Shown piece by piece: positions 3,488-24,143 of a stretch of 24,457 bases of DNA. The DNA is taken from UHGV virus genome UHGV-0127207. One strand, given 5' to 3'. The first letter of the stretch is position 1, and every line of letters starts with the position of its first letter. A program made the position numbers and the translations under genes. The notes below the pieces were generated by a model. That model was not told the DNA's origin and searched no databases. It was given only the letters and a program-made list of their open reading frames with translations. The stretch comes from a virus.

Positions 3488-3582
3488 AGGGTTAGGTTGC
3501 ACGGACCTTGAATCTATGGCATCAATACGTCCTTGTGTGGTAAATGACACAAATACAATTCCAATCAAAGAAAGGTAAAAGA

Positions 3583-4113
3583 ATGAGCCATCCAATTGAT
3601 TATTACGCTATAGAAGAACACGCAAGAATAATTGAGCAATTATGCTGTTCATCTGAATTTTATTTACAGCGTATATATTCCACACAGAAAGTATATGATG
3701 GTTCTATAGTAACTGAATTTGAAATGGAGGAGTTATCGTACAACGGATGGTTGGAATATACCATTAGCAACAATCTTATTAGCCTTTGTACAAAACTACG
3801 AATTCTCCAAGACACTAGTGAACATGAGTGGAACCCAGATTACTCACCTGAGAAAGAAGCATTTGAAGAACATGAAAATATACTTTTTGTTATAGATGGT
3901 CATGTTAAAGATTCTATACGCGAATGCTGCAATAAAATTATTCACGCATTAAGTTTTGAGTTAACAAAAAAGACCGGCAAAAATGGAATAAAATATTGGG
4001 ACGGTTCTATTATTGCTTCTGGGGTTCAAAACAAAAAAAACTGGAAAATTAAAATAGACCTTTTCCCTTTTTGCCAAAGCATAAAAAGTTATTTAAGTTT
4101 ATTAAGAGCGTAA
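3583..4113 (+). CDS. Hypothetical protein of unknown function (moron inserted between tail genes S and V, opposite strand)
   Basis: ORF 3544..4113; ATG at 3583 preceded by AAAGG with 7 nt spacer; visibly A+T-rich; opposite orientation to all flanking structural genes; no motif I can recognise. Confidence 0.6.
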   Translation: MSHPIDYYAIEEHARIIEQLCCSSEFYLQRIYSTQKVYDGSIVTEFEMEELSYNGWLEYTISNNLISLCTKLRILQDTSEHEWNPDYSPEKEAFEEHENILFVIDGHVKDSIRECCNKIIHALSFELTKKTGKNGIKYWDGSIIASGVQNKKNWKIKIDLFPFCQSIKSYLSLLRA

Positions 4114-4118
4114 ACATT

Positions 4119-4571
4119 CTAATTTTTCATCAATAAATACTTTAAAAGTAAATCTCTTACTTCATTTTCAGTATGTTCATTTAAACCCAGCAATTTTCGG
4201 GATGGATACTTAATGACTCCCCCCTTTGGACTGACGCGATCGCGCAGACCGTAGTGATGAACACGGGCAATACGCTGTACCTTACCTTCAAACTGTACGC
4301 TGGCAGAATCCGCGCTGGCGGCAGTTCTCAGGTATTTTGTAGTGCGCAGCTTTGCAAACATCTGACGTTTGATGCGCCCCTTCTTGCTGCGTGCTGTTAC
4401 CCTGCGCGGCTCATAACTGCTGCCATCTGGATTGCGCTGCATCCTGATATTCTGCTGCTGTGTCCGGCGCAGTTCCTGCGCCAGCTGGCGCATCATTCGG
4501 CTTCTTGCGGCTGGTTCCAGATTCGCCAGCAAAGCACTCAGCCAGTCGTCCACCTTCTGCAGTTCAGCCAC
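4119..4571 (-). CDS. S: Tail completion protein gpS
   Basis: 150 aa ORF (MAELQKVDDWLSALLANLEPAARSRMMRQLAQELRR...), P2 gpS-like; overlaps R stop. Confidence 0.85.
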   Translation of the reverse strand: MAELQKVDDWLSALLANLEPAARSRMMRQLAQELRRTQQQNIRMQRNPDGSSYEPRRVTARSKKGRIKRQMFAKLRTTKYLRTAASADSASVQFEGKVQRIARVHHYGLRDRVSPKGGVIKYPSRKLLGLNEHTENEVRDLLLKYLLMKN

Positions 4572-8023: not shown

Positions 8024-9082
8024 TTACGCTCCGGTTTCGGCTGCGGCGGCGCTGAAATCACCAATCTGGATGTTTTCCACCAGTGCGGCGCAGCGGTAGT
8101 CCTCAACCACATAGGCTTCATTAACGGATTCAAAGTTTTCAATCCGGTCACGTTTCGGGTTGTCGATAACTGAACGGCGGCGGGTGTCTTCCTGCCAGTA
8201 GATGGACAGGTTATCCAGACGGGTGATCAGCAGTGCATTCGGCGGGAAGAACGGCGCACGCACGGCCTGCAGGCCACCCATGCGTTTCTGACTGATGATC
8301 ATATCGGCAGCGAGTTTTTCACTGTTTTCCTGCTCTTTGTTGACCAGCGGGAAATACTTGTCAGACAGCAGTTCACGACCGCAAATCACCACCAGATCGT
8401 CATCGTCCTGGTAGACCACGTCGATAAGCTCATTAACGGCATCCATCACCACGGCGTCCAGGTTGGCATATTCGCCACCTTTACCGACTTTCACCGCGCC
8501 CGGTGTGGTTTCACCGCCCGTGGTGGTGCTGCCCATGACGTGATCCGGTGCATCCTCACGGATTTTCTGCAGCCAGCCTTTGTTTACATCCTGCAGCAGC
8601 GGGTTTTCACTACGGTTGGAGGTTTTCGCACGCTTCACGCCGTTAAAGCCGATCATGATGCGGTCCAGTGCCTGACGTTTCACGATGGCGTCACGGATAC
8701 GCACCTGGAAATCCTGAAACTTCGCCCACAGGTCCAGCTTCGCGTAGGTCAGCACCGTGTCAAAGTTGGTCTGCTCGCATTTATATTCCACATCGACCAT
8801 CAGCGTCGGATCGACAGGTTCACGCTCTTTCGCGGTGGTGTCAGTGGTTCCGGCAATGGTGCTGCCAACACCCAGCCCCAGCAGCTGACCGGACTGCTCA
8901 GTCACTGGCGTGACGTTAATCAGCGTCAGGAAAGCGGCGGACTGCTGGATCTGGTCTTCCAGCGTCTGCTGCACAGACGGCTCCACAGTGAATTTGCTGG
9001 ACAGTTCTTCAACTGCCACACCATTCAGACGCGCCAGCTGCTGCAGGTAAGCGTTAAAAGCAAAGCGGGTATTCTTCTTCAT
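8024..9082 (-). CDS. N: Major capsid protein gpN
   Basis: 352 aa (MKKNTRFAFNAYLQQLARLNGVAVEELSSKFTVEPSVQQTLEDQIQ...), P2 gpN-like; follows scaffold gene O. Confidence 0.9.
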   Translation of the reverse strand: MKKNTRFAFNAYLQQLARLNGVAVEELSSKFTVEPSVQQTLEDQIQQSAAFLTLINVTPVTEQSGQLLGLGVGSTIAGTTDTTAKEREPVDPTLMVDVEYKCEQTNFDTVLTYAKLDLWAKFQDFQVRIRDAIVKRQALDRIMIGFNGVKRAKTSNRSENPLLQDVNKGWLQKIREDAPDHVMGSTTTGGETTPGAVKVGKGGEYANLDAVVMDAVNELIDVVYQDDDDLVVICGRELLSDKYFPLVNKEQENSEKLAADMIISQKRMGGLQAVRAPFFPPNALLITRLDNLSIYWQEDTRRRSVIDNPKRDRIENFESVNEAYVVEDYRCAALVENIQIGDFSAAAAETGA

Positions 9083-9098
9083 CGGGTTTTGTGCTCCA

Positions 9099-9932
9099 TC
9101 AGCAATTGGTCAGAGTGTCAGCGGGGGCGTTACCGCCTGTTGCACGCTGGCGGTAGTCCTGGCGGCTGTCTTCATGACTCAGCTTGTCCACCAGTTCGTT
9201 AAAGGCGGTCTGCTGTGCCTGCAGGGCAGTCTCCAGCTCAGACAGACGTTCTTCCTGCTCAGACAGGGATTTTTCGGTGTGTGCGCTCAGGTTCTGCTGC
9301 TCAGTGGCGACCAGCTCCACGGCCTTATGCACATCAGAGAACCGGGCGTCATCGGACTGCTCTTTTTTGGTAAACAGCGCCGTGACGCGGGCAAACAGGG
9401 ACGGTTTGTCGTCCTGGATTTCTTCCAGTTCGATCACCGTTTCCTCTGCAGCGGTAAAGAGATTGGCAGGATTCTGCTTGCGGTTTGCCAGCGGGTTATG
9501 GGCTGCACTGGCGCTGAATGTCAGCATTTCCGTACCCAGACTGGCAGGGTCATCAGTGGCAGCCAGGCCGACCAGGTAGGCTTTGCCCGTATCAGCGAAC
9601 TTCGGGCTGACTTCCATAGATGTGAATAATTTCTGGCCTTTTTTCACCAGTTCCACCAGGGACTCCGTTGGCTCAACGTCGGCATACAGCGCCATCTTGC
9701 CTGCCAGCGGACCTTCCGTGATTTCTTCAGCAAACAGCGCCGTCACCTTGCCGTAGCGGTTAAAGGTGCTGTCCGGCAGATAAGACTTGATGTGCTCAAG
9801 GTTAATCAGCGCGGTATACACCGCCGGGTTGTAGCTGGCTGCCATCTGTTCCAGCCATTCACGCTGGATTTCGCGTCCATCGGTGGTGGCACCTTCCACC
9901 CCGATGCGAAAACGCTTTGCTTTCACTGTCAT
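9099..9932 (-). CDS. O: Capsid scaffolding protein gpO
   Basis: 277 aa (MTVKAKRFRIGVEGATTDGREIQREWLEQMAASYNPAVYTALINLEHI...TLTNC), P2 gpO-like; divergent from P. Confidence 0.9.
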   Translation of the reverse strand: MTVKAKRFRIGVEGATTDGREIQREWLEQMAASYNPAVYTALINLEHIKSYLPDSTFNRYGKVTALFAEEITEGPLAGKMALYADVEPTESLVELVKKGQKLFTSMEVSPKFADTGKAYLVGLAATDDPASLGTEMLTFSASAAHNPLANRKQNPANLFTAAEETVIELEEIQDDKPSLFARVTALFTKKEQSDDARFSDVHKAVELVATEQQNLSAHTEKSLSEQEERLSELETALQAQQTAFNELVDKLSHEDSRQDYRQRATGGNAPADTLTNC

Positions 9933-10010
9933 GAGCCGTGCTCCGTTAGAAAAAACTTACTGGAGCCTTATGGTTGCGGTGATGGGGGCAGTGAAACAAT
10001 GCGCAGTATT

Positions 10011-10028
10011 TGTACCGACAACCACACA
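10011..10028. promoter_or_regulatory. Candidate late-activator (Ogr/B/Delta-type) binding dyad TGT-N12-ACA in the divergent O/P promoter region
   Basis: TGTACCGACAACCACACA in the 142-bp gap between the O and P starts; about 87 bp upstream of the O start codon, so more likely serving the O promoter. Confidence 0.4.
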
Positions 10029-10074
10029 AACCGCAGGCGGGGAAAGCCTTCATTCAAGGCTGTAGGTTTGTGCC

Positions 10075-11841
10075 ATGAACACCACACTGACACCCGCAGA
10101 TCTCGATCCCCGTCGGCAGGCCATGCTGCTGTACTTTCAGGGATACCGCGTCGCCCGCATTGCTGAAATGCTGGGCGAGAAAGTTGCAACCGTTCACAGC
10201 TGGAAAAAACGCGACAAGTGGGGTGACTATGGGCCGCTGGATCAGATGCAGCTCACCACCGCCGCACGCTACTGCCAGCTCATTATGAAGGAGCACAAAG
10301 AAGGGAAAGATTTCAAAGAGATTGACCTGCTGGCGCGCCAGTCTGAGCGCCACGCGCGGATCGGCAAGTTTAACAATGGCGGTAACGAAGCCGACTTAAA
10401 CCCTAACGTCGCCAACCGCAACAAAGGCCCGCGCCGTCAGCCGGAAAAGAACGTTTTCACCGATGAACAAATTGAGAAGCTGGAAGAAATCTTCCACTCC
10501 TCCATGTTCAACTACCAGCGCCACTGGTGGGAAGCCGGAAAAACCAACCGCATCCGCAACCTGCTGAAGTCACGCCAGATCGGCGCGACCTTTTACTTTG
10601 CCCGTGAAGCCCTGATTGACGCCCTGCTGACCGGACGTAACCAGATTTTCCTTTCCGCCAGTAAGGCACAGGCCCACGTCTTTAAGCAGTACATCATCGA
10701 CTTCGCCAAAGAAGTGGAGGTGGAGCTGAAAGGCGATCCGATGGTGCTTCCTAACGGGGCCACGCTTTACTTCCTCGGCACCAATGCCCGCACAGCCCAG
10801 AGTTATCACGGTAACCTGTATCTGGATGAATATTTCTGGATACCGAAATTCCAGGAGCTGCGCAAAGTGGCTTCCGGTATGGCTATTCACAAAAAATGGC
10901 GACAAACCTATTTTTCCACGCCATCCAGCCTGACCCACAGTGCTTATCCGTTCTGGTCCGGTGCGCTGTTCAACCGTGGACGCAACAAAGCCGACAAGGT
11001 GGACATCGACCTGTCCCACAGCAATCTGGCCCCCGGCCTGCTGTGCGCAGACGGGCAGTACCGCCAGATAGTCACTGTGGAAGATGCGGTGCGCGGCGGC
11101 TGCAACTTGTTCGACCTCGACCAGTTACGCATGGAATACAGCCCGGATGAATACCAGAACCTGCTGATGTGTGAGTTCGTGGACGATCTCGCGTCCGTGT
11201 TCCCGCTCAGCGAGCTGCAGGGGTGCATGGTGGACAGCTGGGAAGTCTGGACCGACTTTCATGCACTGGCGCTGCGCCCGTTTGGCTGGCGCGAAGTGTG
11301 GATCGGTTATGACCCGGCAAAAGGTACGCAAAACGGCGACAGCGCCGGGTGCGTGGTGGTGGCACCGCCAGCCGTGCCGGGCGGTAAGTTCCGCATTCTT
11401 GAGCGTCACCAGTGGCGCGGAATGGACTTCCGCGCCCAGGCTGACGCCATCAAAAAACTGACCGAACAGTACAACGTGACCTACATCGGCATCGACTCAA
11501 CCGGCGTCGGTCACGGGGTTTACGAGAACGTGAAAGCGTTCTTTCCTGCCGTCCGGGAGTTTGTCTATAACCCCAACGTTAAAAACGCCCTGGTACTCAA
11601 GGCCTACGACATTATCAGCCACCGCCGTCTGGAGTTTGACGCCGGGCACACCGACATTGCGCAGTCATTTATGGCAATCCGTCGCGCCACCACCGCCAGC
11701 GGCAACCGCCCGACCTATGAAGCCAGCCGCAGCGAAGAAGCCAGCCATGCCGATCTGGCCTGGGCAACAATGCACGCACTGTTTAACGAACCGCTGCAGG
11801 GCGAGTCCGCCAATACCAGCAATATTGTGGAGATTTTTTGA
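10075..11841 (+). CDS. P: Terminase large (ATPase) subunit gpP
   Basis: 588 aa (MNTTLTPADLDPRRQAMLLYFQGYRVARIAEMLGEKVATVHSWKKRDKWGDYG...), P2 gpP-like; followed by and overlapping Q. Confidence 0.9.
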   Translation: MNTTLTPADLDPRRQAMLLYFQGYRVARIAEMLGEKVATVHSWKKRDKWGDYGPLDQMQLTTAARYCQLIMKEHKEGKDFKEIDLLARQSERHARIGKFNNGGNEADLNPNVANRNKGPRRQPEKNVFTDEQIEKLEEIFHSSMFNYQRHWWEAGKTNRIRNLLKSRQIGATFYFAREALIDALLTGRNQIFLSASKAQAHVFKQYIIDFAKEVEVELKGDPMVLPNGATLYFLGTNARTAQSYHGNLYLDEYFWIPKFQELRKVASGMAIHKKWRQTYFSTPSSLTHSAYPFWSGALFNRGRNKADKVDIDLSHSNLAPGLLCADGQYRQIVTVEDAVRGGCNLFDLDQLRMEYSPDEYQNLLMCEFVDDLASVFPLSELQGCMVDSWEVWTDFHALALRPFGWREVWIGYDPAKGTQNGDSAGCVVVAPPAVPGGKFRILERHQWRGMDFRAQADAIKKLTEQYNVTYIGIDSTGVGHGVYENVKAFFPAVREFVYNPNVKNALVLKAYDIISHRRLEFDAGHTDIAQSFMAIRRATTASGNRPTYEASRSEEASHADLAWATMHALFNEPLQGESANTSNIVEIF

Positions 11842-12875
11842 TGGGAAAGAGTAAGAAGAACCGCGCTGCGGCGACGAAACAGATCCAGCATAAAAACCAG
11901 ACTTCAGCCGAAGCATTCAGCTTCGGCGATCCCGTTCCGGTTCTGGACCGCCGTGAACTACTGGACTATGTGGAATGCGTACAGACAGATCGCTGGTATG
12001 AGCCGCCAGTGAGTTTTGACGGACTGGCGCGAACCTTCCGCGCTGCCGTACATCATAGCTCCCCGATTGCAGTAAAGTGCAACATTCTGACCAGTACCTA
12101 CATCCCTCACCCGCTGCTCAGCCAGCAGGCTTTTTCACGTTTTGTGCAGGACTATCTGGTATTTGGTAACGCCTATCTGGAGAAACGCACGAACCGCTTC
12201 GGTGAGGTTATCGCCCTTGAGCCTGCTCTGGCAAAATACACCCGACGCGGGTTAGACCTGGATACCTACTGGTTTGTGCAATACGGTATGACAACCCAGC
12301 CGTATCAGTTCACGAAAGGCAGCATTTTTCATCTGATGGAACCGGATATTAATCAGGAGATCTACGGCCTGCCCGGCTATCTTTCTGCCATTCCGTCAGC
12401 CCTGCTCAACGAATCCGCCACGCTGTTCCGCCGCAAGTATTACATTAACGGTAGTCATGCAGGCTTCATCATGTACATGACCGATGCCGCGCAGAACCAG
12501 GAGGATGTGAACAACCTCCGCAAGGCAATGAAAAGTGCTAAAGGACCGGGCAACTTCCGCAACCTGTTTATGTACTCGCCTAACGGCAAAAAAGACGGCC
12601 TTCAGATCATTCCTCTGTCAGAAGTCGCGGCGAAGGATGAGTTTTTGAATATCAAAAATGTTAGTCGCGATGACATGATGGCGGCACACCGCGTGCCGCC
12701 GCAGATGATGGGGATTATGCCTAATAATGTTGGGGGATTTGGGGATGTTGAGAAGGCGGCGCGTGTTTTCGTACGCAACGAACTTACACCACTCCAAGGC
12801 CGCGTGATAGAAATTAACGAGTGGCTGGATGATGAAGTGATTCGCTTTAACCCATACCTGACTGAGGAAGATTAA
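11838..12875 (+). CDS. Q: Portal (capsid vertex) protein gpQ
   Basis: 345 aa; start overlaps P stop; P2 gpQ-like length and position. Confidence 0.9.
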   Translation: MMGKSKKNRAAATKQIQHKNQTSAEAFSFGDPVPVLDRRELLDYVECVQTDRWYEPPVSFDGLARTFRAAVHHSSPIAVKCNILTSTYIPHPLLSQQAFSRFVQDYLVFGNAYLEKRTNRFGEVIALEPALAKYTRRGLDLDTYWFVQYGMTTQPYQFTKGSIFHLMEPDINQEIYGLPGYLSAIPSALLNESATLFRRKYYINGSHAGFIMYMTDAAQNQEDVNNLRKAMKSAKGPGNFRNLFMYSPNGKKDGLQIIPLSEVAAKDEFLNIKNVSRDDMMAAHRVPPQMMGIMPNNVGGFGDVEKAARVFVRNELTPLQGRVIEINEWLDDEVIRFNPYLTEED

Positions 12876-12961: not shown

Positions 12962-12982
12962 AAAACGCTCCTAAGAGCGTTT
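12962..12982. terminator. Candidate bidirectional hairpin terminator between convergent Q and the accessory operon
   Basis: AAACGCTC-CTAA-GAGCGTTT inverted repeat with T-rich stretches on both strands; the stop codon of the 239-aa gene lies in the loop. Confidence 0.35.
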
Positions 12983-13690
12983 CTGTTTACGGTTTGACTC
13001 TATTTGTTTTTTTAGCTGGATAAGCCTTTCAACTAACTCAAACACTTTTGTACTTGGATTATCAGTATCGCTAGCTTCAGCAGCCTGTAAACTTCTCTTA
13101 GCCCTAAGGACTACTTCATTTAAATCTTTTGACTCTAAAGCGTTTAGGGTTTTCTGAAAAATCCCTTTTGAGCCTTTCTCATAGTCCTTAATATATTTTC
13201 TTAACTCATTTACAATTTGATTTCCTGAACTATTACCAGGTAAATTTCTAAATGCCTTTGTCGAATAGGTATAATGTAGAAGTAACCAATATTCAAAACA
13301 AGGTACTGAATTCACAGTAAACCAAGTTGAGCTTGGTTTACTTCTCCTGATAGCGTCAAGCGCTGCCATGTAATCAGAGTGGGCATCCTTATCAATCACT
13401 ACAAAGATTTGATCATAAGGAGCCCCCTGTTCAGTCATTTTTTTATGCTGTGCTTTTGCATGACGAACAACACACATAGGACTAGAGCCACATTCTCCAG
13501 TTACATCAATTACACTTGCTGTAAGTAATTCAAAATGATTTATCAAATCCTCAAAGTAATTTGGTTCAGTTTTTTTACCCTCACAAACAATTAATATTTT
13601 AGCGAGAGGGGATTTTATTGCATTACGTCTTGCTAGATCCTTAGCCGTTTTAGGGGCACGTTTCTTTTTGAATAAATCCTCGCTTCCCAT
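12971..13690 (-). CDS. TOPRIM-like protein (RloB/AbiLii-type or DUF4435/AriB-type), second gene of a candidate anti-phage pair
   Basis: 239 aa; N-terminal ILIVCEGKKTEPNYF and downstream VVIDKDAHSD consistent with a TOPRIM E...DxD core; A+T-rich; starts 1 nt after the upstream ATPase gene stops. Confidence 0.6.
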   Translation of the reverse strand: MGSEDLFKKKRAPKTAKDLARRNAIKSPLAKILIVCEGKKTEPNYFEDLINHFELLTASVIDVTGECGSSPMCVVRHAKAQHKKMTEQGAPYDQIFVVIDKDAHSDYMAALDAIRRSKPSSTWFTVNSVPCFEYWLLLHYTYSTKAFRNLPGNSSGNQIVNELRKYIKDYEKGSKGIFQKTLNALESKDLNEVVLRAKRSLQAAEASDTDNPSTKVFELVERLIQLKKQIESNRKQKRS

Positions 13691-13691
13691 A

Positions 13692-14957
13692 TCAAATCCC
13701 CGTCAATTTCTTGATGAACGGCAATGCTCCATACCGACCGTCTAGGTATGCGGCTTCTAAATTTTCTCTTCCTTTCCTTGGACTAAAATCAGTCAATGGA
13801 TATAGATTAGTTTCACTGAGTTCATTTTTCTCACAAAACCAAACTTGATCACGTCTAAAAATGCTTTGATTCAGAATGGATGTTTCATGTGTTGAGAAAA
13901 TTAACTGCGCACCTTTTTTATTAGTAACCGGACTATTAAAAAGATTTACCAAGAAACTAACCAACTTTGGATGCAATGTATCGTGAAGCTCGTCGATTAA
14001 TAGTACATATCCATTATCGAGCGCATCTAACCATGGACCAGCTAAAGAAAAAAGCTTTTGAGTGCCATGAGATTCCTCTTCAAGAGAAAAACTTACCGGC
14101 TCACCTTTATCGTTATAATGGACAGTAGTAACATCAAAAACTTCTTTATCCTTCATATTAGAAATAACGATTTTTTTGATATCATCTGGCATATCAGATG
14201 GCAAATCATCTGGATTAAATTTTTCTTTCTTAACTAAAACATCATCAATGCCAATATCTGCAGCTTGCAAAAAATTCAAGATATCTTTCTTCATATCCTC
14301 GGTGCAGCGTTTAGCGGAGAATGTATTAGCCCATCCATTAATTCCAGAAAGTCTCAGTGTTTTTTTAAACCAAGTAAAAACAGGCTTAAGCTGCTCGCTA
14401 TTTAATTGAACAGCTGTAGACAAGAACAGGGCATTATTTCTAGTTGAACGCTGCCAAACTTGTTTTTCACCAAGTAGTGATGCGCCAAAATCCCAATCAT
14501 ATTCCTGCTTCTCTTCATCCCAAGCTCTGAAATACCACTTTTGAGGCCTTCCTTTTGGGTACGCAAAGAGCCATTCATCAATAATTCTTTCATTTGTAGC
14601 AGAAAAACCAAATTGATACCGGGTGCCCTCTGCAATAAAAGTAACTTCAAATTCAGTAGGTTTTTTAATTGAATCTGAATCAAGCTTGAAGGGGAATACG
14701 GGAACCTCTTCACCAGCCTGAGAGTTAGATGCAGAGTGGATAACTAAATCCATCATAGCCCTGACAGCCAGAAGTACATTCGACTTGCCCGCTGCATTCG
14801 CACCGTAAATAACAGCTGACTTTAGAACATTAAGGTTAACGTTTCCCTCTACTGTAAAGATATTCTCTTTTAACTCGTTACTTTTGTTAGCAATAAGTGA
14901 AAGTGTTTGTTTGTTTTTGATTGAGAGATAGTTCTCAACATTGAATTCAATAAGCAT
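13692..14957 (-). CDS. ABC/SMC-like P-loop ATPase (AAA_15/AAA_21-type), first gene of a candidate anti-phage pair
   Basis: 421 aa; Walker A GANAAGKSN, Walker B VLLIDELHD, H-loop-like FSTHET; strong RBS AGGAGGG before the ATG; A+T-rich. Confidence 0.7.
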   Translation of the reverse strand: MLIEFNVENYLSIKNKQTLSLIANKSNELKENIFTVEGNVNLNVLKSAVIYGANAAGKSNVLLAVRAMMDLVIHSASNSQAGEEVPVFPFKLDSDSIKKPTEFEVTFIAEGTRYQFGFSATNERIIDEWLFAYPKGRPQKWYFRAWDEEKQEYDWDFGASLLGEKQVWQRSTRNNALFLSTAVQLNSEQLKPVFTWFKKTLRLSGINGWANTFSAKRCTEDMKKDILNFLQAADIGIDDVLVKKEKFNPDDLPSDMPDDIKKIVISNMKDKEVFDVTTVHYNDKGEPVSFSLEEESHGTQKLFSLAGPWLDALDNGYVLLIDELHDTLHPKLVSFLVNLFNSPVTNKKGAQLIFSTHETSILNQSIFRRDQVWFCEKNELSETNLYPLTDFSPRKGRENLEAAYLDGRYGALPFIKKLTGI

Positions 14958-15135
14958 TTTTACCCTCCTGGTGGTTGAATAATCTTAGTTGCAAAAGCAA
15001 CAAACGTCACCAACAACCAAATCTTAAGGCATTTTATGACAAAAAACGTCAAAATGGTACTCATAAAATGAATTTAAACCAGTTTATTAGACTTAACATC
15101 TAATATTTACGGCTAGCTTTCGCCCTGAACGCGCG

Positions 15136-15154
15136 CTCGTATCCCCGCCACGCC
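15136..15154 (-). other. Candidate cos (cohesive end) site of the phage genome
   Basis: Minus strand reads GGCGTGGCGGGGATACGAG; the first 13 nt match my recollection of the 186/P2 19-nt cohesive end (GGCG(T/A)GGCGGGGAAAGCA(T/C)); G+C-rich motif in a non-coding A+T-rich stretch. Confidence 0.35.
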
Positions 15155-15533
15155 TGCCCGCTTTATGCAGTGGTTTTCATGCACATGCATGACATGAGCA
15201 AAAGCCCGCCAGTTCTGGCGGATCTGAGCAAAGACGATCCTCAATCGATCATGCGATTTCATGCAGCATAGTCATGCACTGTCAAGGAAGTGAAAATCCG
15301 TATCTGAATGGCCACTTGAAAAACGGATCATACGGGTTTACAAAGATGAATGTTCGCTGTGAACGGGAAGCGGAAGTTAGCTTTCAGATAACATAATCCA
15401 TATGCACGAGAACCTCTAAAATAGAATGGGACACCTAAGCGGGGTACTTACAACGATTCTTTCCAGATTCACAGTTAACACTCTGTTTGGCGTATTTTTA
15501 TTCAAATAGCAAACACCAATAAAAGGAGTTTCC

Positions 15534-15869
15534 ATGAACAATATTCCCCCTATACCACAGTTAGGAATTTATGTCTCAAAAATCGATCCCACCCTACGTA
15601 TCACTGTAACCGATGTTGATATTGTTGATGGTGAGGATGATTCTCCTGATGATGAGTTGTTTTATTTAGTCCACTGGATCGAGGGGGAAGATGAAAGTGA
15701 TATGACAGCAATGGGATTTGAGCTAGACCCAGTAGAGTGGCAGGCTTTCGTTGAATCTGAGCAATTAGTGTTTGAGCGTGATCCGTACATGGATTCAATC
15801 CCCGAAAATTCAAACTTGGCAAAGATTCGGGATTTTCTCATGAAGACTAAACAGAATGATCATTCGTAA
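15534..15869 (+). CDS. Small strongly acidic protein of unknown function (candidate DNA-mimic / anti-restriction)
   Basis: 111 aa; strong RBS AAAAGGAG before the ATG; about 26 Asp/Glu against about 7 Lys/Arg by hand count, including runs DGEDDSPDDE and EGEDESD; A+T-rich; opposite strand to flanking genes. Confidence 0.6.
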   Translation: MNNIPPIPQLGIYVSKIDPTLRITVTDVDIVDGEDDSPDDELFYLVHWIEGEDESDMTAMGFELDPVEWQAFVESEQLVFERDPYMDSIPENSNLAKIRDFLMKTKQNDHS

Positions 15870-16061
15870 GTGTAAGCATCCATCAGGAAAATGGTTTTGT
15901 AAGTGAATCATCAACTTTTAGAGAGTCTCAGACACTCCCACTTCTGCTTCTGACACAAAGCGGACGATCACTTATCAAAATAACCGCCCACCTTACGCCT
16001 TATTTCACTCATTGCCCAAACTAGCCCCCATCAGAATGAATCCTCCTGGGGGCAACGTTTC

Positions 16062-16295
16062 TTAATGCAGCCAGCTGTCGTCCTCCCACACCTTCTGCAT
16101 AATTTTCATCACTTGTTTTCTTTCTTCATCCAGTTGCAGTCCGGTTAGTTCCACACCGTTAGAGCTACCTTTGCGAATGCGAATTACCGTTTTGGGATAC
16201 AGGGGGCGCAGATTGCGGTAAAGCTCGGATTCAAGGGCGTCCAGGGTAGACTGGCTAATCTTCTGCTCTTTATCGATCATTATTTCAATGCGCAT
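16062..16295 (-). CDS. dinI: DinI-family protein (DNA damage-inducible protein I homologue)
   Basis: ORF 16062..16367; ATG at 16295 preceded by GAGGTGA gives 77 aa MRIEIMIDKEQKISQSTLDALESELYRNLRPLYPKTVIRIRKGSSNGVELTGLQLDEERKQVMKIMQKVWEDDSWLH, alignable to E. coli DinI (MRIEVTIAK...ELSRR...ETWESADDWF). Confidence 0.8.
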   Translation of the reverse strand: MRIEIMIDKEQKISQSTLDALESELYRNLRPLYPKTVIRIRKGSSNGVELTGLQLDEERKQVMKIMQKVWEDDSWLH

Positions 16296-16305
16296 AAAAG
16301 TCACC

Positions 16306-16494
16306 TCAGCTGATGACATCCATTGAGCGGTTGTATTCGTGGCTTCTGATTTTTGCCATGAGTTCATCAGTCAATTCAGAAACCCACTGCAGAGCCAGCC
16401 CCTTCTCTTCATCACTACACTCACTAGCCGCTACAAGCTTAAGAAAAAAATCAATGCGCTGGAGCTTCAAAGACTCCAAAAAATAGTCCTGCAT
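16306..16494 (-). CDS. Small SOS-controlled protein, candidate antirepressor (Tum-like role)
   Basis: 62 aa; strong RBS AGGAGG; first gene after the LexA box and directly upstream of dinI; functional assignment is inference from context only. Confidence 0.45.
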   Translation of the reverse strand: MQDYFLESLKLQRIDFFLKLVAASECSDEEKGLALQWVSELTDELMAKIRSHEYNRSMDVIS

Positions 16495-16521
16495 CTTTCC
16501 TCCTATGACACCACAACAATA

Positions 16522-16552
16522 CTGTATATATAACCACTGTTTATATTTACAG
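16522..16552. promoter_or_regulatory. LexA operator (SOS box) with overlapping degenerate second box, in the promoter of the small ORF-dinI operon
   Basis: CTGTTTATATTTACAG at 16537-16552 fits CTGT-N8-ACAG; overlapping CTGTATATATAACCAC at 16522-16537 is a partial box; about 45 bp upstream of the 62-aa ORF start; TTTACA -35-like hexamer further upstream on the minus strand. Confidence 0.7.
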
Positions 16553-16646
16553 TATATAATAATCTTACTGATGTAAAACGTTTTTTTACGTTCATCGGCC
16601 TGATATGCCTGGTATTATTAAGAGCACGAATTGTTAACCCGCGTAA

Positions 16647-19061
16647 TTAATACAGGTTCCGCCACTTATCATCTTCCTTCAGACGCTGGTTCCGATAGAA
16701 GATACGCAGGCCTGCTCCTGACGGAATACTGCCGCCGCGAAGGAGCAAATCGACTTCTTTCTCGCTGCCATCAAATCCCCTGGACTTCAGTTCATAGACG
16801 AGCTGCTGTCGCTGATGGTCTGTAATTCGCTGTTTGTAGTCTTTACGCCGTTTCGGTTTCACCTGGCGTAACCTTGCAGCCAGTTCCCGGCGCTCTTTTT
16901 TGCTCATACTGTGCAGGTAATCGTGCAACTCCTTGTCATTCATACGGGTAATATCCGTTCTGGAGTCCCCATCAGCTGATTTGTCTTTCCCTTGTTGGTT
17001 TAAATTTTCAGCAAGGGGACAGTTATTGCCACGAGTCCAAGGGGCGCAAGCGCCCTGGTCGGCTACCGCCTCCTGAACGTCAACGGCCTTACGAACCATT
17101 TTCCACTTCACTGCATGAGTGCAGATCTTGCCCTCTGCAATGGGTGACCAGATGCCATAAATACGAATGCCGTGATCGCCATAGGCGGTCGGCTCTTCGT
17201 TGATTTCATAAGCGGTTCTGATAAGGTGATATTTACGGGGAACCAGTACGCCGCCCTGCTTCATGATGTAGGTGGCAAAACAACCAGCATCAGCAGCAGC
17301 CAGGATGGCATCAAGGCGCGGGTCATCCAGTATCGGCGCACCTGCTTTTTTGTCACCCTGTTGCCTTGCCGCCTGACCAGCCAGCAAGCGAAGTTCACGG
17401 TAAGCCTGACGTCCCGGAATACCAAAGAAGCGGAACTGCTGAACACGATGCAGAGACGCCCAGGCATTAACGTATTCGGCGTTATCACGCAGGGATTTAC
17501 CCGTTTCCTTGCTGATCTCGCCAGCCAGACCACGCCCGTCAATGTTCTTACTGATGTATTTCGCGATATAGCTTGTCGGTGTTCCTTTGCGCGGGTTAAT
17601 CAGCTCAGACTTAAAGCGTGGCCCCGTGTTGTTGCCCAGCTCCTCGCGGTCTACACGGATGGCAAACTTACGCAGTAATGCAGTGATGGCGCGGCGGTCT
17701 TTTTTACGCATGAAGCACATGAGATGCCAGTGCACAGTACCGTCATGGTGCGGCTCAGCCACCCGCACGCCATACCAGCGCAACCCGGTTTTGTGCATTG
17801 CCTTACGAAATGCAGCAAACATGCCGACCATATAATCGCTGCTTTGTCTTACCGTCGCATTTGTCCAGGTCGGGTTGGGTCTGCCGTTGTTGAGCGTGGA
17901 ATGGAAACGTGACGGACAGGTGATAGTGTAGAAAACGGCGCAGTCACCGCGCATTTCCGCGATAAGCTCCAGACCTTTAACACAGGCCATCATCTCATTG
18001 CGGCGATGCGCAGGGTTGCTGCTGCTGGCGTTTACCACATCCTCCATGTCCAGCGTGTCGCCGTCTTCGTTCACCAGTTCATGAGAACGGAAAAACTCCA
18101 GCGACTTACGGCGCTGCTCACGTTTATGCATCACGGCTTCATAGCTGACATAGGGAGATGCTTTTTTGCTGACCAGGCAGACAGCACGCAACTGCTCTTC
18201 CCGCCATTCGCAACGCATCTTCCATAATTTCCGATACCACCAGTCGGCGCACAACATACGCGCCAGCGAACCCGGAATGAGTTCATAGGGCACGGGTTTA
18301 CGGCGGTTTCTTTTCCGACGGAGTTGCTCAAACGCAGGTGGGATGACATCCAGACGCAGGGTTTCCGCCGCCACCTTTTCCCATGTCTTGCGGATTTCTT
18401 CTGGCTTAACGTCATCGGTGGCATACAAATCGCCACAAGCTGCCTCAAGGCACATGCTCATATGCGCAGCTACCAGGGTGGACAGGCGTTTCACCTGATC
18501 CTGACTCATTTCAGGCAGGATCAGCAGGCCCTCCAGCCCTTGATGGCTTGCCATAAAACGGAAAGAAGCAGACAGCTGACTGTCACGTACACAATCCAGT
18601 CGCTCCAGACATGGCTTAATCGTCTCACGCAAATAGCGGGAATAAGCCTTTGGCCTGCCCAGGCTGCTGAAGTATTCGATACGTTGCATCAGCGGCTTGC
18701 TGATATGGATGGGCTGGGCGCTGACGTCCGCCAGAATGACCATGTCCGGGTTAAAACGCTGCTGTTCATGCGCTAGCTTTGCCCGGCTAATGAGCTTATC
18801 CTGCTCCATTTCGCGCTGGACAGGATCACGAGATTCATTAAAGAAATAACGCTCCCAGACCTGCTCACTCAGTGCATCGCGGCACAGCTGTTCCTGCTCA
18901 TTATCGGCAGCGTACAGAGTGATCAGGTTTAAAAGTGCAGACTCCGGAGCAACTTCCGCCGGGTCCAGATAAGGGTTAATGGCCTTTTTCGGGCCGTTCC
19001 ATGAAAATGCTGCAGCGGCCTCGTTAAAGCCGCTAGAGTTGCTCATATCGTCATGACTCAT
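16647..19061 (-). CDS. A: Replication initiation protein gpA (rolling-circle nicking endonuclease)
   Basis: 804 aa; P2/186 gpA-like by size and position at the end of the early operon; start overlaps dam stop. Confidence 0.85.
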
Positions 19062-21980: not shown

Positions 21981-22045
21981 AAGGCAACATTCCTTCTAGA
22001 TATGGCTTGTGGCGAGCCGTTGTTTGTCGTGATTAGTAGTGAAGG

Positions 22046-22119
22046 CTCCAAAAGAACACTTCTGGTTCAACTTTAAGATCGCTTTTGGAATCTGTCAACG
22101 AATTTTGGATTTCTTTGGA
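22046..22119. promoter_or_regulatory. Immunity switch region with repeated TTTTGGA-type motifs (candidate CI operators, convergent pR/pL arrangement)
   Basis: CCAAAAG at 22047-22053 inverted relative to CTTTTGG at 22082-22088; direct copies (T/C)TTTGGA at 22083, 22103 and 22113; lies between the divergent apl and cI genes. Confidence 0.4.
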
Positions 22120-22125
22120 GGACTT

Positions 22126-22695
22126 GTGGATTTCAATAGCGGCGGTAAGAAAGCCATAGAACGTTTAGTTGAAGCATATGGGTTCGGTACCCGTCAGGCT
22201 CTCTGTGATCATTTAGGTGTTTCTAAGAGCACCATGGCAACGCGCTATATGCGTGATATTTTTCCAGCAGATTGGGTAATCCAGTGCGCCCTTGAAACGG
22301 GCACCTCGCTTAATTGGCTAACAACAGGGCATGGTTCAAAGCAAGCATCAGCAAATACAAATACTATAGAAGTAGAAAAATATTTATTGTCTGATGGAGC
22401 ATTGCAGAAAGACGGTTTTTATATTTTTGATAAGGGATTTCTACCCTCTACGTTTAAAAAACCTTTTGTCATCACAGATAACAATTCTGAATTTATTTGT
22501 GATAAAGAATTTGATGATATACGTGATGGTAAATGGGTAATAAGTATTGATGGCGAAATAACGATCCGTGACATTACTCGTTTACCCGGTGGAAGAATCT
22601 TCGTCGAGGGTGGAAACAGAGCCTTCGAATGCAAGATAGAAGACATTGAAATAATTGGTAAAATTATAAGTTTAACAGTCAAGTATGTTAAATAG
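22126..22695 (+). CDS. cI: CI immunity repressor (186-type, N-terminal HTH)
   Basis: ORF 22039..22695; GTG at 22126 preceded by GGAGGA gives about 189 aa; HTH region GTRQALCDHLGVSKSTMATRYMRD; start uncertain (SD spacing short). Confidence 0.75.
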   Translation: MDFNSGGKKAIERLVEAYGFGTRQALCDHLGVSKSTMATRYMRDIFPADWVIQCALETGTSLNWLTTGHGSKQASANTNTIEVEKYLLSDGALQKDGFYIFDKGFLPSTFKKPFVITDNNSEFICDKEFDDIRDGKWVISIDGEITIRDITRLPGGRIFVEGGNRAFECKIEDIEIIGKIISLTVKYVK

Positions 22696-22902: not shown

Positions 22903-23090
22903 CTTTTGCTTTTATATCTGCGTCTAAAATAAAAATGAGCCGCAGGTTAACCGCAAAAGTTACATGCTCACATAGCAAAAAGAATAGCCAACTTCATGAT
23001 GGCTTCAGTGAGATGTATGGTCGTAGGATTTCATACATTGACACTGGTTATACATACAGTAAAAATGCTCTCTACTGGAGGGCATTTTTT

Positions 23091-24143
23091 ATGGCAGTAC
23101 GAAAACTCACCACAGGGAAATGGCTTTGCGAATGTTACCCCGCCGGACGTAGTGGGCGTCGTGTGCGTAAACAATTCGCCACCAAAGGCGAAGCTCTGGC
23201 TTTTGAGCGCCACACGATGGAAGAAACCGAAGCAAAGCCCTGGCTGGGTGAATCAGTGGATCGTCGAACACTGAAAGACGTAGTTGAGCTATGGTTCAAA
23301 CTACATGGTAAATCTCTGACAGCTGGGCAGCATGTCTATGACAAATTGCTGTTGATGGTTGACGCTCTGGGTAATCCTCTTGCAACCGATCTCACCTCTA
23401 AAATGTTTGCCCACTATCGAGATAAACGCCTGACAGGCGAGATCTACTTCAGCGAGAAATGGAAGAAAGGAGCAAGCCCGGTCACCATTAACCTGGAGCA
23501 AAGCTATCTAAGTAGTGTTTTTAGCGAACTATCCCGTCTGGGCGAATGGTCGTATCCGAACCCACTGGAGAACATGCGAAAATTCACCATCGCAGAAAAA
23601 GAGATGGCATGGCTTACCCATGAGCAGATTGTTGAATTGCTGGCTGATTGCAAACGTCAGGACCCAATTCTGGCACTGGTAGTTAAGATATGCTTAAGCA
23701 CAGGCGCACGCTGGCGTGAAGCCGTAAATCTTACCCGCTCACAGGTGACCAAATACCGAATTACCTTTGTCAGAACGAAGGGGAAGAAAAACAGAAGCAT
23801 CCCTATCAGTAAAGAGCTTTACGAAGAGATCATGGCGCTTGATGGGTTCAATTTCTTTACAGACTACTATTTTCAATTTTTATCCGTGATGGAAAAAACG
23901 TCTATCGTGCTCCCTCGCGGTCAACTCACACACGTTCTGCGCCATACGTTTGCGGCGCACTTCATGATGTCGGGTGGAAACATTCTCGCCTTACAAAAAA
24001 TTCTCGGACACCACGATATAAAAATGACTATGCGTTACGCACATCTGGCACCAGATCATCTGGAAACGGCGCTCCGTTTCAATCCTCTGGCAACGCTGCC
24101 AAGTGGCGACAAAGTGGCGGCAGCGGTTGGCATTACCCCGTAA
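23091..24143 (+). CDS. int: Tyrosine integrase (P2/186 family)
   Basis: ORF 22935..24143; ATG at 23091 (MAVRKLTTGKWLCECYPAGR...) taken as start; C-terminal catalytic region HVLRHTFAAHFMMSGGNILALQKILGHHDIKMTMRYAHLAPDHL with catalytic Tyr in MRYAHL. Confidence 0.9.
   Translation: MAVRKLTTGKWLCECYPAGRSGRRVRKQFATKGEALAFERHTMEETEAKPWLGESVDRRTLKDVVELWFKLHGKSLTAGQHVYDKLLLMVDALGNPLATDLTSKMFAHYRDKRLTGEIYFSEKWKKGASPVTINLEQSYLSSVFSELSRLGEWSYPNPLENMRKFTIAEKEMAWLTHEQIVELLADCKRQDPILALVVKICLSTGARWREAVNLTRSQVTKYRITFVRTKGKKNRSIPISKELYEEIMALDGFNFFTDYYFQFLSVMEKTSIVLPRGQLTHVLRHTFAAHFMMSGGNILALQKILGHHDIKMTMRYAHLAPDHLETALRFNPLATLPSGDKVAAAVGITP

Follow-up and report, generated by a model that had tools for sequence, protein, structure and literature searches.

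The acidic 111-residue protein encoded at positions 15534-15869 of a P2/186-like prophage is a member of DUF8087, a family that is repeatedly linked to int and to gpA-type replicons and that stays constant where neighboring defence genes vary. The gene is genuine and under purifying selection, and the copy studied here reached its present site as part of a mobile module. We tentatively propose, as one possible reading, that the protein would work on its own as an acidic decoy: it would inhibit some nucleic-acid-binding protein, and the mobile element carrying the gene would benefit.

The window, by which we mean the entire 24,457-nt stretch that was analyzed, is a P2/186-like prophage in reversed orientation relative to the P2 map (Table 1). 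Beyond gpA it encodes Dam, a CII-like protein, CI and Int. The DUF8087 gene lies in the gpA-gpQ hotspot, approximately 380 bp from the cos core, as the sole plus-strand gene between AbiLi and the DinI-like gene. A first-pass annotation, made from the sequence without database searches, had described a lone plus-strand gene with a good ribosome-binding site in an A+T-rich island, and each of these points was borne out: a Shine-Dalgarno sequence precedes the ATG by 5 nt, and GC content is 0.41 in the ORF, 0.35-0.46 over positions 13001-16500 and 0.53-0.63 in the structural genes. The Shine-Dalgarno sequence is also kept, as AAAGGA or AAGG, in the Serratia, Lonsdalea, Proteus and Symbiopectobacterium copies. 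The residue counts of that annotation proved exact, with 26 acidic residues (15 Asp and 11 Glu) against seven basic ones (four Lys and three Arg), as did both acidic runs, DGEDDSPDDE (residues 32-41) and EGEDESD (residues 50-56). The computed net charge is about -19 at pH 7.

Table 1. Coordinates of features in the window
Feature	Position	Strand	Remarks
Orphan 189-aa ORF	3544-4113	+	GC 0.34
Phage_tail_S	4119-4571		adjoins the orphan ORF
Terminase P	10075-11841	+	
Portal Q	11838-12875	+	
AbiL system	12971-14957	-	two genes
AbiLi	13692-14957	-	421 aa
cos region common to P2-like phages	15130-15280		core GGCGTGGCGGGGA at 15142-15154, minus strand
Horizontally mobile module	15356-15905	+	ca. 175 bp upstream, ORF and ca. 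36 bp downstream
Weak candidate sigma-70 promoter	15468-15498	+	TTCACA, 19-nt spacer, TATTTT; 9/12 matches; relaxed scan
Shine-Dalgarno AAGGAG	15523-15528	+	5 nt 5' of ATG
DUF8087 (PF26332) / PHROG 17127 CDS	15534-15869	+	111 aa, ATG start, pI 4.05 (computed)
P2-type integrase 5'-end remnant	15856-15906	+	MIIRKCKHPSGKWFCK, then stop; ATG overlaps last DUF8087 codons
G+C-rich 7-bp hairpin	16024-16053	.	between convergent DUF8087 and DinI-like genes; -15.7 kcal/mol, z = -1.95
DinI-like gene	16062-16367	-	
phrog_698 gene	16306-16494	-	
Replication protein gpA	16647-19061	-	
CI	22039-22695		past gpA
int	22935-24143		past gpA

Several other features of the window merit description in their own right. 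The cargo on the Q side of the hotspot, between portal Q and cos, is a complete two-gene AbiL system composed of AbiLi, an AAA_21 ATPase (PADLOC, E = 1e-100), and AbiLii, a RloB protein of 239 aa. The DinI-like ORF has a 101-aa reading if translation starts at an upstream ATG, which lies within the overlap with the 3' end of phrog_698, and the RefSeq version is 77 aa; in Fels-2 the counterpart of the DinI-like gene is annotated as similar to PSP3 TumB. The orphan 189-aa ORF sits in an A+T-rich gap among minus-strand tail and morphogenesis genes and has no matches in Pfam or PADLOC; the likeliest explanation is that it belongs to the cargo of another P2 accessory hotspot, the second in this prophage.

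Family membership of the 111-aa protein was established by profile search and through its homologs. The protein matches phrog_17127 with E = 2e-70, residues 1-111 aligning to all 111 profile positions, and is 98% identical to the cluster representative P0001, which carries PF26332. Precomputed matches to PF26332 are found on all 61 + 81 + 56 homologs, P0001 included, and it is on these matches, together with the RefSeq product name "DUF8087 domain-containing protein" (WP_001059831.1), that the PF26332 assignment is based. By tblastn, the protein of E. coli E2348/69 (WP_001059831.1) shows 100% identity to that of the window, the BL21(DE3) copy has the same accession, and UniRef names an identical sequence "Ybl33" (E. 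coli B). Homologs fall into more than 100 clusters, and because only 35 matches came out of a profile search that exhaustively covered 1.84 billion representative proteins, we consider the family to be small.

Distant members range from 68 to 132 aa and share a core consisting of P-x-x-G-(L/I)-Y-V-S ... R-x-V-V-x-D-V, an acidic loop of 0-12 residues, and F-F-L-V ... D-M-S-A-x-G-x-E-L-D-P-x-E-W-x-x-F-V. Pro8, Gly11, Tyr13 and Val25 are invariant, and Trp69 is nearly so. Acidity is a family-wide property, with net charges of -6 to -22 and pI values of 5 or below even in relatives from Betaproteobacteria that are 30-40% identical. Because all members are acidic while the length of the loop varies, selection appears to act on charge rather than on a specific loop sequence. 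Pairwise dN/dS was 0.07-0.20 in comparisons with orthologs from eight other loci (Serratia, Symbiopectobacterium, Lonsdalea, Proteus, Buttiauxella and Xenorhabdus), and it stays in this range across differing cargo contexts. Thus, the ORF is a genuine gene under purifying selection and not a chance reading frame. Two overlapping minus-strand ORFs (15601-15822 and 15662-15841) were rejected as genes because purifying selection acts on the plus frame.

Searches of Pfam (a local copy without the PF26332 model), NCBIfam and PADLOC gave no matches for the 111-aa protein and revealed no catalytic or membrane domain, and a profile search of PDB chain sequences gave none up to E = 10. By tblastn, no copy was detected in 50,697 sequenced phage genomes, and among 72,556 plasmids there was a single record, a 45-kb non-mobilizable E. 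coli plasmid. A literature search for DUF8087, WP_001059831 and ybl33 found no relevant paper and no published function. The family has an existing catalogue entry as a DUF. Its member in the window is best filed as an uncharacterized, small, acidic, inhibitor-like protein of mobile elements.

Structure prediction points to a compact, folded protein. Two AlphaFold2 runs, with 31 and 42 sequences, gave mean pLDDT values of 78.9 and 75.6, and both place strands at residues 11-15, 22-31, 43-50, 60-64 and 78-82 and helices at 66-76, 84-87 and 94-108. The predicted fold is a small five-stranded SH3-like domain with helices. Because the two acidic runs fall in predicted loops of this fold (residues 32-42 and 51-59), the protein is likely to be a folded domain rather than a disordered tail. 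The structural check proposed in the first-pass annotation therefore yielded a protein that is predicted to fold, and the disordered tail of a structural protein that it had raised as a counter-case was not seen.

That annotation had also suggested a DNA mimic or anti-defence factor that follows the logic of Ocr or ArdA. The broader suggestion is upheld in part: the protein is phage-borne, its acidity is family-wide, and its gene stands alone among defence genes, but it has no homology or fold match to any characterized mimic. Foldseek comparison of the predicted model with PDB and BFVD found nothing at E <= 0.001, and neither Foldseek nor the PDB profile search linked it to Ocr, ArdA, HI1450, DMP12/19, Gam, Arn or other solved mimics. 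The more specific Ocr- or ArdA-type comparison failed, there being no sequence or fold relation to either protein in Pfam, the PDB profile search or Foldseek. DUF8087 proteins are like Ocr and ArdA in being small, very acidic and encoded by stand-alone genes of mobile elements. Ocr is an all-alpha dimer and ArdA an elongated dimer of three-domain subunits. In contrast to the all-alpha Ocr, the DUF8087 protein is predicted to be beta-rich, and its model is not an all-alpha elongated dimer with DNA-like charge spacing; nor does a 111-aa protein with a single compact predicted domain resemble the three-domain ArdA. Ocr and ArdA are also expressed first on DNA entry, whereas relatives of DUF8087 are found in a lysogeny operon.

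CarS, at about 111 aa, is close to the DUF8087 protein in size. This Myxococcus xanthus antirepressor is an SH3-like mimic of operator DNA, acidic and built of five antiparallel beta-strands (PMC2926617). The DUF8087 protein is likewise acidic, and it would share the five-stranded SH3-type architecture if its predicted fold is correct. As a further point in this comparison, the invariant Tyr13 and nearly invariant Trp69 of DUF8087 lie among the acidic loops. CarS is the sole conceptual precedent, with a resemblance in kind and not one of membership. A second comparison is with DinI, whose acidic helix mimics single-stranded DNA to RecA. DinI is likewise a small acidic phage/SOS protein that acts by mimicry, and a DinI-like gene adjoins DUF8087 in the hotspot; however, the two are unrelated in sequence and fold, the DinI-like gene is on the opposite strand, and, together with phrog_698, it belongs to the prophage backbone, whereas DUF8087 is variable cargo.

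The position of the gene beside a cos-like site, another claim of the first-pass annotation, was confirmed. A region of the window (15130-15280) is the only intergenic part shared with Fels-2, SopEPhi and the P2-like phages of Klebsiella and Yersinia, and its 13-nt core, GGCGTGGCGGGGA, has a single match in the whole window. This core resembles the sequence with which the P2/186 cohesive end begins. The complete 19-nt end of P2 is absent from the window at up to three mismatches, the 13-nt core alone matching. Homology of E. coli genomes to the DUF8087 side starts at cos, at about 15124-15130, and the cos region forms the recombination boundary that separates one half of the hotspot from the other.

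Nucleotide homology across genera is confined to a segment of about 550 bp, the mobile module of Table 1, which is 84-88% identical in Serratia, Symbiopectobacterium, Lonsdalea and Proteus. None of these loci has P2 genes within 10 kb. A search for related loci with an alignment of close homologs gave five species, and two of the cross-genus loci are ICE-like islands with a P4-type integrase, AlpA, DUF2857, TraR and VirB4, in which the DUF8087 copies adjoin DUF4365-TPR or Mrr-like genes. At its 3' end the module retains the start of a P2-type integrase gene: the DNA from 15856 reads ATG-ATC-ATT-CGT-AAG..., encoding MIIRKCKHPSGKWFCK before a stop, and residues 1-14 of Buttiauxella Int map to 15856-15903 by tblastn. 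Copies in other genera (L011-L014) retain the first 46-62 residues of Int. The window copy is a translocated module in which this integrase 5' remnant persists, its position beside cos being secondary. The upstream region of ca. 170 bp was considered as a remnant of the Flk_N-like gene found in Klebsiella, and this was rejected because there is no similarity. A 127-aa hydrophobic protein (MDTLSIKGIFEV...) is encoded 3' of DUF8087 and the int remnant in Lonsdalea, Proteus and the second E. coli island variant (L013 10538-10921, L014 10538-10921 and L021 9659-10042). It has no Pfam or PADLOC matches and may be a co-travelling partner of DUF8087.

The arrangement survives intact in P2-like prophages of Klebsiella and Buttiauxella, where DUF8087 is part of an operon at the att site beside pgsA/uvrC. 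This operon encodes, in order, the C repressor, a 215-aa Flk_N-like membrane protein, DUF8087, Int and a 243-aa protein, with gene spacings of 4-10 nt and, in Klebsiella, a 4-nt overlap between DUF8087 and int. In P2, C and int form the lysogenic (Pc) transcript, and the Klebsiella and Buttiauxella homologs are probably expressed in the prophage because they lie in such a C-int operon. The linkage of DUF8087 to int and the lysogeny operon is ancestral. In Klebsiella the five-gene operon occupies 8908-12067 of loci L016-L019. The C-terminus of the Klebsiella C repressor (GQGNRVAGRDYNENKK) recurs at the N-terminus of the next protein (GNQNRISGRDFNENNIQ), as might be expected if the two proteins had a module in common or if a duplication had taken place. 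Pantoea sp. (L004, 10001-10309) has a solitary and divergent DUF8087 gene, with 33% identity and no phage genes around it; it lies beside pgsA/uvrC, which is the integration site of the Klebsiella DUF8087-int prophages, and is probably all that is left of a prophage that has decayed.

The first-pass annotation had reasoned that a position next to cos would suit early expression after injection, an argument that the evidence does not bear out. The gene converges on the early A-DinI transcript, to which it is antisense; a consensus promoter was not found; the gene sits in a translocated module; and homologs occupy a lysogeny operon. A standard sigma-70 promoter scan of positions 14900-16700 found none at the standard threshold. 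The only candidate in a relaxed scan, TTCACA-19-TATTTT, has too long a spacer, and it is conserved across copies of the module. No Rfam families were found over the same positions, and the hairpin between the two convergent genes is, tentatively, a possible bidirectional terminator. As judged from these arrangements, DUF8087 is probably transcribed while the element is integrated, here by way of the weak promoter of its own and in the Klebsiella relatives as part of the repressor-integrase operon, and it is probably not an immediate-early gene after injection.

A third genomic context is provided by small integrative elements in Nitrosospira multiformis, Nitrosovibrio tenuis and metagenomes, of which there are at least five (L002, L007, L023, L030 and L031). 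All have a fixed layout of int, optional cargo, DUF8087 on the plus strand, a divergent HTH_17/AlpA-Phage_GPA operon, and more cargo. The cargo itself varies and includes TIR-AAA16-TPR (TIR-NTPase), BglII restriction-modification with Gabija, Kiwa (KwaAB), a TumE toxin-antitoxin pair and a SMEK/Aga-REase-like protein. A sixth contig (L025), which ends just upstream of DUF8087, contains the DUF8087-cargo-int side alone. DUF8087 proteins of these elements carry an added basic N-terminal tail (MGQAKLRGSKEERIAQSKARK) on the acidic domain. That DUF8087 stays constant while the defence cargo around it changes suggests that it serves the element and not the host. Betaproteobacterial homologs are preceded by small ORFs, which were considered as repressors and rejected because they are not conserved. 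The AlpA-proximal intergenic region of the elements contains a conserved TTGACA adjoining the near-palindrome CTGTTACAG, and the overall layout recalls P4-like satellites with defence hotspots.

Among 5426 complete E. coli genomes, 218 contain the module. The hotspot copy, at 95% identity or more, is present in 137 genomes, including BL21(DE3), C41(DE3), other B strains and EPEC E2348/69; an 88.5%-identical variant occurs in 82 genomes in another genomic island, along with IS elements, the 127-aa gene and a gene for a 1589-aa Tiamat/Mokosh-like helicase. Since 1301 E. coli genomes match part of a query spanning the cos to DinI flanks (14958-16061), DUF8087 occupies approximately 10% of E. coli P2-like prophages (ca. 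131-137 versus 1301 genomes). The cargo across cos from DUF8087 genes that are at least 99% identical consists of AbiLi/AbiLii in the window, a DprA-like gene in E2348/69, retron Ec86/St85 in BL21(DE3) and, in other genomes, a TIGR02391 protein, retron Ec67 or GmrSD. Because this cargo differs among strains, DUF8087 is not part of AbiL or of any one system, and its candidacy as a third AbiL component was dismissed, as partners vary and homology breaks at cos. The BL21(DE3) locus (L022, NZ_CP081489.1 874281-886830) has an identical DUF8087 gene, at 880317-880652, across cos from retron Ec86, a St85-family reverse transcriptase with its effector. The P2-like prophage at this locus has decayed, its gpA and CII genes being pseudogenes, and the DUF8087 gene is intact.

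The gpA-gpQ region including cos is the P2 defence hotspot described by Rousset et al. (2022, PMC9122126), in whose Table S5A the DUF8087 protein is listed 50 times as "hypothetical", outside the tested systems. Further P2 accessory hotspots are "between integrase and primase" and "integrase to att" (PMC13586616). DUF8087 has the attributes of gpA-gpQ cargo, being located between gpA and gpQ, near cos, and variable among P2-like prophages, and in Fels-2 a different gene fills its slot. It resembles P2 old and tin and the systems of Rousset et al. in belonging to the same class of locus, in being A+T-rich and in varying between otherwise near-identical prophages; it differs from them in being a single 111-aa protein without an enzymatic domain. 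Thus, across prophages and small elements, the DUF8087 family is repeatedly linked to int and gpA-type replicons and constant where defence genes vary.

In the decoy model that we tentatively prefer, DUF8087 would act stoichiometrically as an acidic mimic of nucleic acid, inhibiting a target protein by covering the basic surface with which that protein binds DNA or RNA. Stoichiometric binding is suggested because charge is conserved without catalytic motifs, and a host or widely shared target because DUF8087 persists, independently of any partner, in many contexts. The protein would be an autonomous single-gene module and not a subunit of the neighboring AbiL, and the beneficiary would be the mobile element that carries it, through counter-defence or host take-over in a broad sense. 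An inhibitor or decoy is consistent with its distribution among defence genes, whether in prophages, in ICE-like islands or in small integrative elements. How the protein works, what it targets, when it is expressed and who benefits are all inferred. Several observations weigh against the model. The protein has no match to a characterized mimic or anti-defence protein, no consensus promoter was found for its gene, and no copy was seen in the phage genomes searched. Expression in the prophage state, if it occurs, is more in keeping with exclusion genes (rex, old and tin, for example) than with anti-restriction. Moreover, the hotspot and the lysogeny operon carry mostly defence rather than anti-defence genes, recognizable anti-defence genes being present in only 28 of 1511 P2-like prophages (PMC13586616).

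One alternative is that DUF8087 is a prophage-expressed exclusion or defence factor, a case of lysogenic conversion like P2 old/tin/fun or lambda rex, in which the lysogen would be protected by poisoning a protein of a superinfecting phage or hijacking satellite, for example by titrating an incoming DNA-binding protein. Tin, which poisons T4 gp32, acts in this general manner, and P2 old is oriented opposite to the A operon, as is the DUF8087 gene. All contexts that we examined are defence islands, and from its place in the tightly spaced C-int operon of Klebsiella and Buttiauxella the protein would be made in lysogens. The gene also occupies a hotspot in which tested cargo is often anti-phage (PMC9122126; PMC13586616), although DUF8087 itself was listed by Rousset et al. 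outside the tested systems. Set against this are the absence of PADLOC matches and of any effector-like domain, and, in the small int/AlpA/gpA elements, its status as a fixed core gene amid defence cargo that varies. We regard an exclusion role as rather unlikely.

The ancestral site directly upstream of int raises a different prospect, namely that DUF8087 regulates its own element. Here the acidic domain would bind the arm-binding domain of the integrase, Cox/AlpA or the gpA HUH nuclease, and would tune integration and excision or silence replication in the manner of the CarS antirepressor. The two genes are translationally coupled, as judged from the 4-nt overlap in Klebsiella and the overlapping remnant in the window; in the small elements DUF8087 holds the "repressor position", divergent from AlpA-gpA; and its association with Phage_GPA replicons is repeated in two bacterial classes that are only distantly related. 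However, a gene found in just some 10% of E. coli P2-like prophages is a poor candidate for such a function, and purifying selection persists at loci (L011, L014 and L021) without an intact int or nearby gpA or AlpA. The intact gene beside the gpA pseudogene of BL21(DE3) argues the same way, and we consider an element-intrinsic regulator distinctly improbable.

There is a slim chance that DUF8087 has some other function altogether. Slimmer still is that of a classical Ocr/ArdA-type anti-restriction protein expressed immediately on entry owing to its adjacency to cos: high negative charge, carriage by mobile elements and a distance of 380 bp from the cos core speak for it, but there is no homology, the predicted fold is beta-rich and differs, the gene converges on the early operon without a consensus promoter of its own, homologs lie in a lysogeny operon or far from any cos, and the position here is the outcome of a translocation in which an int fragment was carried along.

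The decoy model can be extended into a joint reading of fold and distribution, which we offer as a doubtful proposition. The acidic SH3-like barrel would then represent a new class of nucleic-acid mimic and a core life-cycle or conflict gene of undescribed, P4-like-organized elements that carry defence cargo, with the layout int, cargo, DUF8087, divergent AlpA-gpA, cargo. P2-like prophages would have recruited it, to the lysogeny operon first and to the cos hotspot second, and it would target a conserved DNA-binding protein. That target could be proteobacterial or of phage origin; a restriction or defence nuclease, an H-NS-like silencer, or a helper or satellite regulator are all possible. H-NS would be of interest here as a nucleoid silencer that possibly represses A+T-rich defence cargo.

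Nothing yet points to an unusual mechanism for DUF8087. Hotspots of P2-like prophages are a main source of newly found anti-phage systems, and counter-defence or regulatory genes are hardly recognized there. The DUF8087 gene is among the commonest unexplained occupants of these hotspots, and it is the one gene that stays constant beside at least 12 different defence systems. These settings span two bacterial classes and mobile elements of three kinds. Its presence in BL21(DE3), beside retron Ec86, makes deletion and overexpression tests easy. Should DUF8087 prove to be an exclusion factor or an integrase-linked regulator, a Pfam DUF would still gain a function. If the decoy model is correct, the family would add a new fold to the repertoire of DNA mimics and would offer a way into the question of how mobile elements cope with, or escape, the immune systems that they carry.
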